This document shows, in pieces, positions 7,519 to 51,800 of a stretch of DNA of 51,827 nucleotides. How positions within the stretch are numbered: position 1 is the stretch's first letter; each line of letters starts with the position of its first letter. The notes beneath the pieces were generated by a model. That model worked only from the letters and a program-made list of their open reading frames with translations. It made no database searches and was not told the origin of the DNA. Source of the DNA: Longimicrobiaceae bacterium. Its GTDB lineage: Bacteria > Gemmatimonadota > Gemmatimonadetes > Longimicrobiales > Longimicrobiaceae. The stretch is taken from assembly GCA_035696245.1 (NCBI GenBank), contig DASRQW010000273.1:1-51827 (forward strand). Direction: 5' to 3'. The position numbers and the translations under genes are program-made.

Positions 7519-9123
7519 TCAGCGCGGAGCCGGCATCGGCTGGACGGGGACGGAGCGGCCGGTGATGGGATCGTACTTCTCCAGCACCTTGCCCACGTCG
7601 CGCGAGCCTTCCTGCACGGCGCGGGCGGCCTCGTCCACGTCGTCGTCGGTGCGCAGGACGTGGGGGGTAAGCAGCAGGAACAGCTCGGTGTTCGCGGTGG
7701 TGTTGCGGGTGGAGCGGAAGAGCCCGCCGAGCAACGGGATGTCCTTCAGCCCGGGGATGCCGGAGCGGGTGGTGGTGTGCTCCTGGCCCATCAGGCCGCC
7801 GATGACCGTCGTGTGCCGGTCCTGTACCAGCAGCACGGTCTCCGCCTCGCGCGTGCTGATGATGGGCGCACCGAACTGGCTCTCGGCAGTCGCCGTGCTC
7901 ACCTCCTGGAGCAGCGTGAGGGTGACGAAGCCGTCCTGGTTGATGGTGGGGCGGATGGTGAGCTGCGTGCCCACGTCGCGGTACTGCACCACCTCGTCGC
8001 GCGCGCCCCCGTCGGTGGGCAGCGAGCGCGAGATCTGCACGAATGGGCGCTGGTCGCCCACCAGGATGCGCGCCTGCTGGTTGTTCTGGGCGATGATGAT
8101 GGGGCGGGAAACGATGGTGGCCTGGCCGGACGAGGCGAGCGCGTGGATGATCACCGTCGCGTCCACGCCGCCCACGTTCATCAGGTTGACGAGGATGTTC
8201 CCCGGCGTGTTGTCGGTGATGTGCCCGCCGATGGTGGTGCCGGTGCGCGGCTCCCGCTGGTTCGGGACGTTCACGTCCAACCCGAGCGACAGGTTCTTGT
8301 CGCGTCGGACCTCCACGATCAAAACCTCGATCATCACCTGCAGCGGCCGCTCGTCGAGCAGCTGCACCGCCTGGGCGATGGTCTGGTAGTCCGATGTGCT
8401 GCTGCGGATGAGCAGCGAGTTGGTGAGCGCGTCGGGCACGATCTGGACGTTGCCGCGCACCTGGCCGGAGAGCACCGTCACGTTCGGCTGCGGCGCGGAC
8501 GCGGCCGAGGCGATGGTGGGGTTCGCGGGGTCGGTCACCGGCGGCACGCGCTGGGACCGCAGCTCGCGAGAGAGGGACGAGGCCGCGTCGCCGAACACGC
8601 CGCTGCTGGGCTGGCGCTGCCCCAACCCGAACAGCTCGCGGAGCGTGCCGGCGACCGCGTCGGCCTGGGCGTGGCGCAGACGGAGGACGAAGAGCTGTGC
8701 ATCTCCCGACTGCGCAGCAGCGCCGCCGCTGAACGTGGGCTGCGGCGTCATCGGCTGCGGAGCTGGCGGCGGGATCGCCTCGATGCGGGTGAGCGAGCCG
8801 TCCTGCACCATGCGGAGGCCGTTCGAGCGCACCACGTTGTCCAGGAATCCGCGTACCTCGGCCCGCGACCGCGGCGTACTGCTGCGGATGGTGACCGGGG
8901 TGGACGGCAGGCTGCCGTACGTCACGTTGACGCCCGCCAGCTCGGCCAGCGCGGTGACGACCACACGCAGGTCGGTGTCGCGGAAGTCGACGGTGTAGCC
9001 GGCGGCGGTGGTGCGCACGCCGGGCGACGGCTGCTGCTGCGCGCCCAGCCGCGGGGCGGCGCCGAGCGTGAAGGCGAGCAGGGCGACGGCGACGGGCGCG
9101 CGCGTGACGTGGAGCTTCCGCAT
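7519..9123 (-). CDS. gspD: Type II secretion system secretin GspD
   Basis: MRKLHVTRAPVAVALLAFTLGAAPRLGAQ is a signal peptide. N-domain repeats follow, then the secretin core (...VMIEVLIVEVRRDKNLSLGLD..., ...IPGLKDIPLLGGLFRSTRNTTANTELFLLLTPHVL). The start was chosen at the first ATG preceding the signal peptide; upstream ORF sequence is Arg-rich junk. Confidence 0.9.
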   Translation of the reverse strand: MRKLHVTRAPVAVALLAFTLGAAPRLGAQQQPSPGVRTTAAGYTVDFRDTDLRVVVTALAELAGVNVTYGSLPSTPVTIRSSTPRSRAEVRGFLDNVVRSNGLRMVQDGSLTRIEAIPPPAPQPMTPQPTFSGGAAAQSGDAQLFVLRLRHAQADAVAGTLRELFGLGQRQPSSGVFGDAASSLSRELRSQRVPPVTDPANPTIASAASAPQPNVTVLSGQVRGNVQIVPDALTNSLLIRSSTSDYQTIAQAVQLLDERPLQVMIEVLIVEVRRDKNLSLGLDVNVPNQREPRTGTTIGGHITDNTPGNILVNLMNVGGVDATVIIHALASSGQATIVSRPIIIAQNNQQARILVGDQRPFVQISRSLPTDGGARDEVVQYRDVGTQLTIRPTINQDGFVTLTLLQEVSTATAESQFGAPIISTREAETVLLVQDRHTTVIGGLMGQEHTTTRSGIPGLKDIPLLGGLFRSTRNTTANTELFLLLTPHVLRTDDDVDEAARAVQEGSRDVGKVLEKYDPITGRSVPVQPMPAPR

Positions 9124-9170
9124 CGGGTACCTTCGGGTATGTGCGTCGCGCGACGGGCGCGAGGGATGTA

Positions 9171-48800: not shown

Positions 48801-51800
48801 GCCCCGGCCGGAGGTGGGCTTCAACTACTTCGGCCAGATGGGCGCCGGCGCGTCCGAGGACGGCCTCCTCGCCCCCTCCGCCGAGTCGTACGGCGCGACC
48901 GTCAGCCCGCGCGGCCGGCGCACGCACCTGCTGGACGTGACCGCGATGGTCGCGGGCGGACGCCTGGTGGTGAGCTGGGGCTACAGCCCCGCGCGCCACG
49001 ACCGCGCCACCATCGAACGCCTCGCAAACGCATACGAAGCCGCGCTCCGCGCCATCGTCGCGCACTGCCGCACGGCGGATGCGGGCGGCTTCACGCCGTC
49101 GGACTTCCCGCTCGCGCCGCTCACGCAGGCCGAGCTGGACCGCGTGGCCGCCGCGCAGGGCGGCGCCGCGGGCATCGAGGACGTGTACGCTCTGTCGCCG
49201 CTCCAGGGCGGCATGCTCTTCCACACGCGCCTGCAGCCGGAGAGCGGCGCGTACTTCGAGCAGCTTCGCTTCACCCTGCGCGGCGCCTCGGACGAGGACG
49301 CGATGGTGCGCGCCTGGCGCGAGGTCGTCGCCCGGCACGCCATCCTCCGCACCGCCTTCGTGGCCGACGGGTTGGAGACGCCCGTGCAGGTCGTCCACCG
49401 CACGGCCGATCTGCCCGTGGAACGCCACGACTGGCGCGACGCGGGAGATGCGGAGCGGTCCGGCCGCCTCGCCGCGCTGCTGGAGGCCGACCGCGCCCGC
49501 GGCATCGACCTCACGCGCGCACCGCTGATGCGCCTCACGCTCGTGCGCACGGCGGACGACGTGCTGGAAGTCGTCTGGAGCCATCACCACATCCTGCTGG
49601 ACGGCTGGTCGCTGCCGCAGGTGATGGGCGAAGTCTGGGCGCTGTACGACGCATTCGCCGCGGGCCGCACGCTCGACCTGCCGCGCCCGCGTCCGTTCCG
49701 CGACTACATCGCCTGGCTCGCGCAGCGCAGCATGGCCGGCGCGGAGGCGTTCTGGCGCCGCACGCTGGAAGGCTTCACCACGCCCACCGCGCTGCCGGGA
49801 GATGCACGGCCGGGCACCACCACCGCCCCCGTCCACTTCGCGGAGGAGACGTCGGGCCTCACCGCCGAGGAGACGGAGCGCCTCCAGGCCTGGGCGCGCG
49901 ACCGCCGGCTCACGCTCAACACGCTGCTCCAGGGCGCGTGGGCGCTGCTCCTCGCCCGCTACTCCGGCGAGACCGACGTCGCGTTCGGCAACACCGTCAG
50001 CGGCCGCCCGGCGGAGATGGAGAGCGTGGAGCAGATGGTGGGGATGCTCATCAACACCATCCCCGTGCGGGTGGCGGTGCCGGACCGTGCTGCCGTGCTC
50101 CCGTGGCTGATGTCGTTGCAGGACGCGCAGATGGAAGCGCGCGACCACGACTACGCGCCGCTCGTTCAGGTCCAGCGCTGGAGCGACGTGGACCGCGACC
50201 GCCAGCTCTTCGACAGCCTCTTCGTCTTCGAGAACTACCCGTCCGCCGCCGGTGCTCCGGAAGCCGCGACGGAGGATACGGAAGATGCGGACGCGCCCCC
50301 GCTCGCCGTCGATTTCGACGCGGCGATGGAGCGCACCAACTACCCGCTCGTCGTCTCCGCCGCGCCCGCGGGCCGCCTGCTCCTCCGCGCCACGTACGAC
50401 GCCGGCCGCTTCACGGCCGACGGGATCGCGCGGATGCTGCGGCACTACGCCACGCTCCTCCGCGCGCTGCCGGACCACGCCGACACCAGCCTCTCCGCCC
50501 TGGAGATGCTGTCGGCCGACGAGCGCCGTACGCTCGTCAACGAGTGGAATGCGACAACGACCGAGTACCCGCGCGACACTTCGATCCCCGCGCTGTTCGC
50601 CGCGCAGGCTCAGAAGACGCCAAGCGCCACCGCCGTCCATTTTGTCCACAACGAGCTGACGTACACCGAGCTGGACGTGCGCTCCAACCGTCTCGGGAAC
50701 CATCTCCGCGCCGCTGGCGTGGGGCTGGAGACCCGCGTCGGCATTTCAATGGAGCGCTCGGCCGACCTGGTCGTCGCTTTGCTCGCCATACTCAAAGCTG
50801 GCGCCGCATACGTTCCGCTCGACCCCAGCTACCCGGCCGATCGTCTCGCCTTCATGCTGGACGATTCGGAGATCGGCGTGCTCCTCGTGGCAGATGCGCT
50901 GCCGGAAGCCCTCGCATCCTTCACCGGCACCGTTGTCTCGCTGTCTGGAGACGCCGAGCGGATCGCAGCGCAGAGCCCCGCATCTCCCGAAATCTCCGTC
51001 TTCCCCGAATCGCTGGCGTACGTCGTCTACACGTCGGGATCGACCGGTAAGCCGAAGGGAATCGGCATCCCGCACTCGGCTGTCGTGCGCCTCGTCCGGA
51101 ACAGCAACTACGTACAGCTCGGCGCGGATGAGCGGGTTGCGCAGGTCTCCAACGCCTCGTTCGACGCGGCGACGTTCGAGATCTGGGGTGCGCTGCTGAA
51201 CGGCGCCTCGCTCATCGGCATCGACCGCGACGTGACGCTGTCGCCCGAGCGGTTCGTAACCGCGCTTCGGGAGATGGACATCAACACAATGTTCCTCACG
51301 ACCGCGCTGTTCAATCAGGTCGCGCGCGAGATTCCGGACGGCTTCTCATCGCTCGACAACGTGCTGTTCGGCGGCGAGGCAGTCGACCCGTCTGCGGTGC
51401 GTGCAGTTATCGACGCGGGCGGGCCGACGCGCCTTCTCCACGTCTACGGTCCGACGGAGAGCACGACGTTCGCAACGTGGCACCTGGTCGATGCGGTAGA
51501 TGAGAACGCGGCGACGGTTCCCATCGGCGCGCCGCTGTCGAACACGACGACGTACGTGCTCGACCGCGAGATGCAGCCGGTTGCCATGGGCGTCAACGGC
51601 GAGCTGTACATCGGCGGCGACGGCTTGGCGCGCGGCTATCTCGGCCGCGCGGGGCTGACGGCGGAGAGGTTCGTCCCGAATCCGTTCATCGACGGTCAGC
51701 GCCTGTACCGGACGGGAGATGCGGTGCGGTGGAACGCCTCCGGAACCATCGAGTTCGTCGGCCGTCTGGACGAGCAGGTGAAGATTCGCGGCTTCCGCAT

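Follow-up and report, generated by a model that had tools for sequence, protein, structure and literature searches.

A short asymmetric word, (C)GCATCTCCC(G), occurs in the genes of a metagenome contig from a Longimicrobiaceae bacterium at about 20 times the level that the encoded proteins and their codon habits allow. The contig (DASRQW010000273.1), which has a GC content of 72%, was analyzed over its whole length of 51,827 nucleotides, referred to here as the window; its host is an uncultured soil-type bacterium known from metagenome contigs only. The word is found in both orientations, is restricted in reading phase, is kept in a sister strain and is missing from relatives. We tentatively read it as a lineage-specific genomic signature that a molecular drive resembling that of uptake sequences may have produced.

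Over-representation of the word

The window contains 21 copies of GCATCTCCC or of its reverse complement GGGAGATGC, from which it differs, the word being non-palindromic; 12 are on the plus strand and nine on the minus strand. A recount returned exactly the positions and strands that an initial annotation of this DNA had listed, and agreed with it that 13 of the 21 copies extend to the 11-mer CGCATCTCCCG. Dinucleotide-preserving shuffles (100 in all) gave an expectation of 0.56 for the 9-mer and a maximum of three, below one as had been supposed, and the 21 copies observed represent a 37-fold excess. The 13 copies of the 11-mer compare with 0.08 expected from such shuffles, an excess of about 160-fold. 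Under an order-3 Markov model the expectations were 1.8 for the 9-mer and 0.3 for the 11-mer, and by this score no other 8- to 11-mer of the window is more over-represented than the word and its sub-words. A C precedes the 9-mer in 18 of 21 copies and a G follows it in 16. Beyond positions -1 and +10 the information content is at background and the flanks of the copies are unrelated; since conservation ends one base outside the 9-mer, the word does not belong to a longer dispersed repeat. Sequences one mismatch away from the 11-mer are also in excess (30 versus about 6 expected), the main forms being CGCATCT[T/A]CCG, and include the four CGGAAGATGCG sites at 36181, 38641, 44932 and 50281 that had been pointed out previously. 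The density is 0.41 per kb over the window and about 0.8 per kb within the 26 kb bearing copies, which corrects the earlier figure of near one per kb. The spacing of the copies is irregular, ranging from 43 to 4604 nt.

The 21 copies are listed below, with their codons in the nonribosomal peptide synthetase (NRPS) gene, in the type II secretion (gsp) genes or in a dehydratase gene; L327 is a sister-strain locus described further on.

8699..8707, plus strand (TGCATCTCCCG): antisense in gspD; coding strand TCG GGA GAT GCA (Ser-Gly-Asp-Ala), the phase being computed from the end of the open reading frame (ORF) at 9759; kept in L327
9756..9764, plus strand (CGCATCTCCCG): antisense in a gspM-like gene; coding strand TCG GGA GAT GCG, the Gly-Asp-Ala phase being inferred from the orthologous gene calls of L327; kept in L327
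11183..11191, plus strand (CGCATCTCCCG): antisense in gspL, ACG GGA GAT GCG, in a poorly conserved segment; kept in L327
11693..11701, plus strand: antisense in gspL, TGG GGA GAT GCG, where relatives have Gly-Ser/Gly-Trp-Pro-Ala
12831..12839, minus strand: sense in gspK codons 5-7, GCA TCT CCC (Ala-Ser-Pro); 11th base A, versus G in L327
13060..13068, minus strand (CGCATCTCCCG): sense in gspJ, GCA TCT CCC, in a variable segment
14474..14482, plus strand: antisense in the N-terminal extension of gspH, TCG GGA GAT GCA
16190..16198, minus strand: the sole intergenic copy, 2 nt past the gspE stop codon within the 31-nt gspE-gspG spacer
33259..33267, plus strand (CGCATCTCCCG): sense, GCA TCT CCC, in the C-terminal tail of the Lant_dehydr_C gene ending at 33351
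33302..33310, plus strand: sense, minority phase CGC ATC TCC C (Arg-Ile-Ser), in the tail of the same gene
36427..36435, plus strand: NRPS sense, GCA TCT CCC, in the variable loop after 'AYVV' between A8 and A10 of the module 1 adenylation domain (A-domain)
41031..41039, minus strand (11-mer): NRPS antisense, TCG GGA GAT GCG
42810..42818, plus strand (11-mer): NRPS sense, minority phase CCG CAT CTC CCG (Pro-His-Leu-Pro)
44175..44183, minus strand (11-mer): NRPS antisense, TCG GGA GAT GCG, in the 'AYVV' variable loop of module 3
44848..44856, plus strand (11-mer): NRPS sense, GCA TCT CCC
45996..46004, minus strand (11-mer): NRPS antisense, TCG GGA GAT GCG
46550..46558, plus strand (11-mer): NRPS sense, minority phase CGC ATC TCC CGC (Arg-Ile-Ser-Arg, preferred codons throughout)
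49443..49451, minus strand (11-mer): NRPS antisense, GCG GGA GAT GCG
49797..49805, minus strand: NRPS antisense, CCG GGA GAT GCA
50980..50988, plus strand (11-mer): NRPS sense, GCA TCT CCC
51714..51722, minus strand (11-mer): NRPS module 5, inside the A-domain motif YRTGD, ACG GGA GAT GCG (Thr-Gly-Asp-Ala)

No two copies of opposite orientation lie closer together than about 0.55 kb (45996 on the minus strand and 46550 on the plus strand), and the sole intergenic copy is unpaired. The inverted pairs in terminators that the initial annotation had proposed looking for were thus not seen in the window, where the motif-bearing parts contain little intergenic DNA.

Reading phase and codon-level tests

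Twenty of the 21 copies are inside genes, nine of them sense and 11 antisense to transcription, and the absence of strand preference that had been proposed holds for transcription as well as for the 12:9 split between strands. As sense and antisense copies are equally common, a reading at the level of RNA or translation is excluded and recognition of double-stranded DNA is indicated. Two mRNA-level accounts, internal Shine-Dalgarno-like GGGAG sequences and rare-codon pausing, were rejected on the same grounds. All 11 antisense genic copies read xxG GGA GAT GCx (Gly-Asp-Ala), where the phase had first been remarked on in six NRPS copies, and six of the nine sense copies read GCA TCT CCC (Ala-Ser-Pro). 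Motif positions 3, 6 and 9 fall at the codon wobble position in 17 of 20 genic copies, where one third would be expected (P ~3e-6). A longer repeat or a recurrent protein motif behind the copies, either of which had been named as fatal to an uptake-like interpretation, is ruled out by the flanks and the phases together.

Both dominant tripeptides reach the word through synonymous codon choice alone. In the NRPS gene, where 93% of third codon positions are G or C (GC3), GCA makes up 4.3% of Ala codons, TCT 4.1% of Ser, GGA 5.4% of Gly and GAT 17.7% of Asp. Nevertheless, all three Ala-Ser-Pro tripeptides of the NRPS are encoded GCA TCT CCC and six of its 19 Gly-Asp-Ala tripeptides are encoded G GGA GAT GC. 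Synonymous resampling of this gene with its own codon usage gave an expectation of 0.67 copies, as compared to the 11 observed. The frame that uses preferred codons only (CGC ATC TCC) holds just two copies; where copies occur is set by amino acid constraint and not by codon preference. Elsewhere in the NRPS, positions 35466-35492 of the plus strand form a 9-bp tandem, CGCATCTAC CGCATCTAC CGCATCTGC (Arg-Ile-Tyr, Arg-Ile-Tyr, Arg-Ile-Cys), the units of which are one-mismatch relatives of the word in the preferred-codon phase.

We also graded the sites in the secretion genes, the dehydratase gene tail and the NRPS by the best match to the word that the protein permits. The gspM and gspN genes, whose frames are approximate, were left out of this test and of the permuted-motif control. 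Sites were realised as follows, with expectations from codon usage and Poisson P values:

Perfect copy allowed: 34 sites, 19 realised versus 1.12 expected, P ~2e-17
Best match with one mismatch: 327 sites, 33 realised versus 12.1 expected, P 5e-7
Best match with two mismatches: 2055 sites, 116 realised versus 82.9 expected, P 3e-4

For 25 permuted control motifs, 10 perfect sites were found versus 10.0 expected and 185 one-mismatch sites versus 158; these motifs lie near expectation and the null model is therefore calibrated. The pressure toward the word is graded, not all-or-none. Together, the resampling, the accessible sites and the calibrated controls bear out the initial annotation in its view that selection or drive at the DNA level is accommodated by the coding sequence.

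Placement within the encoded proteins

The copies in GspK, GspJ, GspH and GspL are in N-terminal extensions or in segments that cannot be aligned with the orthologs, and others occupy variable loops of the NRPS, in keeping with the earlier remark that most copies sit in variable or linker stretches. Uptake sequences of both known kinds, the DNA uptake sequence (DUS) and the uptake signal sequence (USS), are likewise placed in poorly conserved protein segments (Findlay & Redfield 2009, PMC2817400). NRPS modules 1 and 3 each have one copy in the same 'AYVV' adenylation-domain loop, in opposite orientations (36427 and 44175), and the NRPS copies are of independent origin rather than derived from module duplication. 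The copy at 51714 is in the conserved YRTGD motif, which modules 1-4 encode with GGC GAC CGx (Gly-Asp-Arg) and module 5 with GGA GAT GCG (Gly-Asp-Ala). The contrast between GGC GAC and GGA GAT that had been drawn for this motif therefore stands for all four other modules, and the copy amounts to two rare codons plus an Arg-to-Ala difference. An origin of the 9-mer as an excision footprint or an insertion was rejected, since this copy sits within the aligned YRTGD.

Distribution along the window

The copies are confined to 8699-16198 and 33259-51722, with eight in the secretion cluster, two in the dehydratase gene tail and 11 in the NRPS. The remaining 25.7 kb lack copies, for which P is ~6e-7 under uniform placement with boundaries chosen post hoc. 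The main features of the window are:

1..8698: copy-free stretch; RHS-type gene and insertion sequence (IS) element no. 1 to about 7410, with the 3' part of gspD at 7519-8698
1457-6149: RHS-type gene of 61-70% GC, within the copy-free 1-8698
6283-7410: IS630-family element no. 1, with a helix-turn-helix orfA and a DDE_3 orfB
7519..17634, minus strand: type II secretion gene cluster gspD … gspE, from Pfam and the gene calls of twin contigs; eight copies, about 0.8 per kb
16199..33258: copy-free stretch; gspE at its start, then IS630 no. 2, split LanB-type genes and precursor ORFs for ribosomally synthesized and post-translationally modified peptides (RiPPs)
21866-23244: IS630 element no. 2, within the copy-free middle segment
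33562..51825, plus strand: NRPS frame still open where the window ends, with 6088 aa or more and five or more modules; 11 copies

IS630 no. 1 is a clean insertion relative to L327, in which the matches to window positions 6282 and 7411 are contiguous. Synteny with L327 ends at 17675 and the RiPP island begins just beyond. The gspE gene (16201-17634) has no synonymously accessible site for the word. In the genes of the copy-free middle segment none of five accessible sites is realised, versus about 55% in motif-bearing genes, a small sample; in this comparison the gspM/N frames were wrong and the 9756 copy was misassigned there. These data are suggestive of depletion of the word in recently acquired or mobile DNA (IS630, RHS and the RiPP island).

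Several other features of these segments were recorded. IS630 no. 2 lies between two direct repeats, at 21072-21360 and 23263-23559, that are about 290 bp long and 83% identical. On the minus strand each of them encodes a '…YPFFDELVAAQVPGL…' peptide, suggesting that a gene fragment was duplicated around the IS. Twelve small ORFs at 28095-31236 on the plus strand, each with a leader ending …(L/A)E(E/Q)VAGG and a core xCS(W/L/M/V)xxCSN…, look like an array of multiple RiPP precursor peptides. LanB-type genes lie beside the array (Lant_dehydr_C at 24244-25278, Lant_dehydr_N at 25282-28044, and Lant_dehydr_C at 31280-32296 and ~32300-33351). The array is directly upstream of the NRPS, and the twin contig L001 differs in length there, with a shift in offset of 172 nt. 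RHS/YD-repeat toxin-type genes flank the secretion cluster in this lineage and in its 82% relative (L327 3-1874 and 12969-13792; window 1457-6149; L203, the locus of that relative, 4155-8444) and vary from strain to strain; the one upstream of gspE in L327 has no homolog above 47% identity. Finally, GspK (window 11868-12851) and its orthologs show weak or faint matches to the ComEA-type helix-hairpin-helix domain HHH_3 (PF12836), which probably reflect the GspK fold in general and should not be taken to indicate DNA binding.

Occurrence in sister strains and relatives

Two further independent assemblies contain the same copies. L001 is a 21-kb twin contig from Joint Genome Institute sample 3300041409 that is 99.9% identical to the window. 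L327, a 13.8-kb locus from sample 3300049982, shares the secretion cluster at 93.96% nucleotide identity (6.08% divergence) and keeps eight of the eight secretion-cluster copies. Only one difference from the window was found in 88 motif positions, where 5.4 were expected (P ~0.03), and this single difference moves the copy closer to the consensus.

The best GspE relatives belong to Longimicrobiaceae or Longimicrobium, phylum Gemmatimonadota. Their loci, with GspE identity to the window, are:

L203: GspE 82%, 11.8 kb, no copies
L328: GspE 77%, 12.5 kb, two non-orthologous copies; GAT usage 48%
L204/205: GspE 72%, 12.8 kb, one copy
L206: GspE 71%, 21.4 kb, no copies

The two L328 copies are plausibly due to chance. 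No counterpart of the intergenic copy at 16190 was found in the gspE-gspG spacer of L203, L204 or L206. Neither these loci (L203, L204/205, L206 and L328, 58 kb) nor nine Gemmatimonadota loci contained another word of comparable excess. Among GTDB species representatives the best GspE identity was at most 59% (Gemmatimonadota), and none of 80 loci was enriched for the word. A search for NRPS homologs gave nothing above 57% identity. Since the word is present in strains of the same species and not in relatives, it characterises a species-level lineage. The earlier suggestion of lineage specificity is thus supported, the word being kept at 94% nucleotide identity and missing from relatives with GspE 71-82% identical.

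Wider searches were made for the word itself. In the literature, the 9-mer and the 11-mers returned primers and eukaryotic sequences only, with no bacterial report. A scan of viral sequences with CGCATCTCCCGTCC gave at least 120 matches, each single and by chance. A metagenome scan for paired 10-mers (CGCATCTCCCN{15,45}CGCATCTCCC) gave, among the matches listed, tandem repeats and no contig with a dispersed motif. A Gemmatimonadaceae metagenome-assembled genome (CAZPER010000004.1, locus L004) has at 11.4-14.6 kb short tandem arrays of the octamer CAGACGGG in both orientations, with 27 matches of CAGACGGGCAG in 21 kb; these are microsatellite-like and unrelated to the word studied here.

A possible uptake-sequence-like drive

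Only one characterised process would seem to fit a word written this intensely, in both orientations and at tolerated sites, with recent arrivals spared, namely sequence-biased uptake followed by recombination. A sequence-specific step acting on double-stranded DNA, and hence blind to orientation, would give a transmission advantage to alleles bearing the word. Most likely this step would be one in which a competence apparatus preferentially binds and imports DNA carrying the motif, with homologous recombination to follow, which would imply that the host is competent and that the word extends genome-wide. The word would then accumulate at sites compatible with the encoded protein. These would chiefly be Ala-Ser-Pro and Gly-Asp-Ala tripeptides, for which changes at wobble bases suffice, and also variable loops and linkers that tolerate amino acid change. 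Recently arrived DNA, such as the IS elements, the RHS genes and the RiPP island, would have yet to acquire it.

The properties of the DUS and USS systems have been summarised (PMC2817400, PMC7371117). Genes without homologs lack uptake sequences (PMC2817400), as do the integrative and conjugative elements of Neisseria (PMC7371117), and the 25.7 kb without copies parallel both observations.

A number of points weigh against this interpretation. The data bearing on genome-wide abundance comprise 52 kb of this organism and, from one sister-strain locus, a further 2.3 kb. The 52-kb window holds no comEA, comEC, type IV pilus or ComP-like pilin gene, and its pilus-like cluster is, by Pfam, an ordinary type II secretion system. 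In the literature searched, natural transformation is undocumented for Gemmatimonadota and nothing links the phylum to uptake sequences. Inverted pairs and terminator-associated copies are lacking in the window, with only one copy intergenic. No 'dialect' occurs in related Longimicrobiaceae, and an uptake system would thus have to be very young. The saturation of accessible sites, at 56%, implies an unusually strong force. Lastly, uptake sequences favour reading frames with preferred codons (Findlay & Redfield 2009, PMC2817400), while the favoured frames here use rare codons, the opposite of the USS/DUS correlation.

Alternative explanations

It is possible, although we consider it somewhat unlikely, that uptake is not involved and that the word was left by an as yet undescribed sequence-specific system, one that originated within a single species-level lineage of Longimicrobiaceae. 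Such a system might use the word as a self-marking site for a nuclease, a recombination protein or a chromosome-organising protein, or might be a new directed gene-conversion process. Either would have to be so strong as to occupy over half of the synonymously accessible sites in spite of 93% GC3 and to impose amino acid changes on conserved enzyme motifs.

An unlikely reading is that the word is a binding or recognition site directly selected for a chromosomal function, with high density favoured and coding constraints setting its placement. Candidates include a Chi-like self-recognition or recombination-hotspot site (RecBCD/AddAB-type) and a site for an abundant nucleoid or condensin-type protein. 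The DNA-level and graded enrichment of near matches and the conservation between strains fit a protein of graded affinity, and Chi-like self-markers would also be expected to be missing from recently acquired DNA. Known Chi and FtsK-orienting polar sequence (KOPS) motifs, which are 5-8 nt long, are skewed and only a few-fold enriched, and the word is split 12:9 between strands and 9:11 between sense and antisense; this excludes a Chi-type skew only weakly and suggestively, as P(≤12 of 21) under a 75% skew is 0.056. The irregular spacing (43 to 4604 nt) also speaks against such a site, and we know of no nucleoid protein whose site is asymmetric, 11 bp long and present within genes about once per kb. 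It would further be odd for a housekeeping function that the closest relatives have neither the word nor a substitute.

Quite unlikely is a bias toward the word in mutation, repair or gene conversion, directed by sequence through a mismatch-specific nuclease or repair system that would resolve heteroduplexes or mismatches at near-motif sequences in favour of the motif, with no function needed for the word itself. This would be analogous to very-short-patch repair and to proposals for the cyanobacterial highly iterated palindrome HIP1. Orientation independence and lineage specificity would follow from it naturally, newly acquired DNA would be copy-free, and the realisation of 19 of 34 sites with one- and two-mismatch intermediates would fit a deterministic conversion. 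The direction of change speaks against it. The derived bases, A and T at positions 3 and 6, replace G/C at the wobble of genes with 93% GC3, whereas known very-short-patch repair runs the opposite way, from T:G to C:G, and repair bias is disfavoured on that account. In addition, an 11-bp asymmetric site would be far longer than the recognition sequences of known repair nucleases or methyltransferase partners, and the window contains no candidate gene.

We regard it as very unlikely that the pattern is local, that is, that the secretion cluster and the NRPS came from a word-rich donor genome or that the word serves these clusters alone. The copies do occur in two gene clusters only and half of the window is empty, but the two segments with copies have unrelated functions and are separated by 17 kb, and it is the copy-free segments that bear the hallmarks of mobile DNA (IS630, RHS, lower GC and breaks in L327 synteny). 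Moreover, a donor would merely shift the same question to another lineage.

Trivial explanations (a recurrent peptide, codon usage, paralogous NRPS modules, a longer dispersed repeat or an assembly artefact) have a negligible chance of being correct: although the NRPS modules are paralogous, CGC ATC TCC uses preferred codons and CGCATCTNC forms short tandems at 35466-35492, these explanations are refuted by flanks that are uninformative beyond about 1 nt per side, by two orientations, three phases and non-equivalent module positions with rare codons in the dominant phases, by the decisive synonymous-resampling, accessible-site and permuted-motif results, and by the same copies in the independent assemblies L001 and L327.

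Implications

Sequence-biased DNA uptake with a genomic footprint is known, to our knowledge, from two Pseudomonadota families only (Neisseria, Haemophilus), and the present footprint, with the anatomy of DUS and USS, is in an uncultured and very GC-rich member of the Gemmatimonadota. If an uptake drive is responsible, such drives evolve more widely and more rapidly than has been thought; if not, another process writes words with this intensity. Because the word calls for A and T in the wobble position of genes with 93% GC3, the drive opposes codon selection, and the balance between the two can be read directly from the 56% of accessible sites converted, an unusually clean case for theory. In practice, the word could serve as a marker for binning contigs of this lineage and could help tell resident from recently acquired DNA, for example the RiPP island.

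Comparison with known systems

Among known over-represented oligomers, Chi, KOPS and architecture-imparting sequences resemble the word as marks of 'self' DNA that are read by DNA-processing machines. Chi and KOPS differ from it in their length of 5-8 nt, their strong replication-strand skew and their modest enrichment, where the present word shows a 12:9 split and far higher enrichment. Repetitive extragenic palindromes, bacterial interspersed mosaic elements (REP/BIME) and miniature inverted-repeat transposable elements are likewise conserved sequences repeated many times in either orientation, but they are longer, structured and intergenic with conserved flanks, whereas here about 11 nt are conserved and the copies are in frame within genes. 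HIP1 (GCGATCGC) is likewise a hyper-abundant and lineage-restricted word of coding DNA with a phase preference, and its mechanism is debated (repair versus methylation). HIP1 is palindromic and has cognate methyltransferases, unlike the asymmetric word of 9-11 nt described here.

The closest likeness is to uptake sequences, and an enrichment of this size is on the scale of USS and DUS, far above that of Chi. The DUS of Neisseriaceae (10-12 nt, with genus-level 'dialects') is also a short asymmetric word present about once per kb in both orientations, enriched tens- to hundreds-fold, located inside genes where coding allows, scarce in mobile or recent DNA, kept among close strains and lineage-specific. 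Its sequence is unrelated and its hosts are Pseudomonadota, not Gemmatimonadota; most DUS are intergenic whereas 20 of the 21 copies here are intragenic, and the inverted terminator pairs and the dialects in relatives have no equivalent here. The sequence-specific receptor in Neisseria is a ComP-type minor pilin. The USS of Pasteurellaceae, a 9-nt core with flanks, is similar in being mostly intragenic, in restricted frames and at poorly conserved positions, with inflated tripeptides, a cloud of one-mismatch forms and absence from genes without homologs (PMC2817400). It differs in that USS frames track preferred codons, as opposed to rare codons at 93% GC3, and in its AT-rich flanking segments, which the present copies lack.

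Over-representation, orientation symmetry, restriction of phase and position, depletion in mobile DNA and conservation at the strain level are thus common to the word and to DUS and USS, while the inverted terminator pairs typical of DUS and of some USS, and dialects in relatives, were not seen here. Since biased uptake, a receptor and genome-wide density are what define DUS and USS, we do not file the word under either name. Instead, it appears to be a new genomic signature of the same general type, unrelated in sequence to those known, and comes from a phylum for which none had been reported before.

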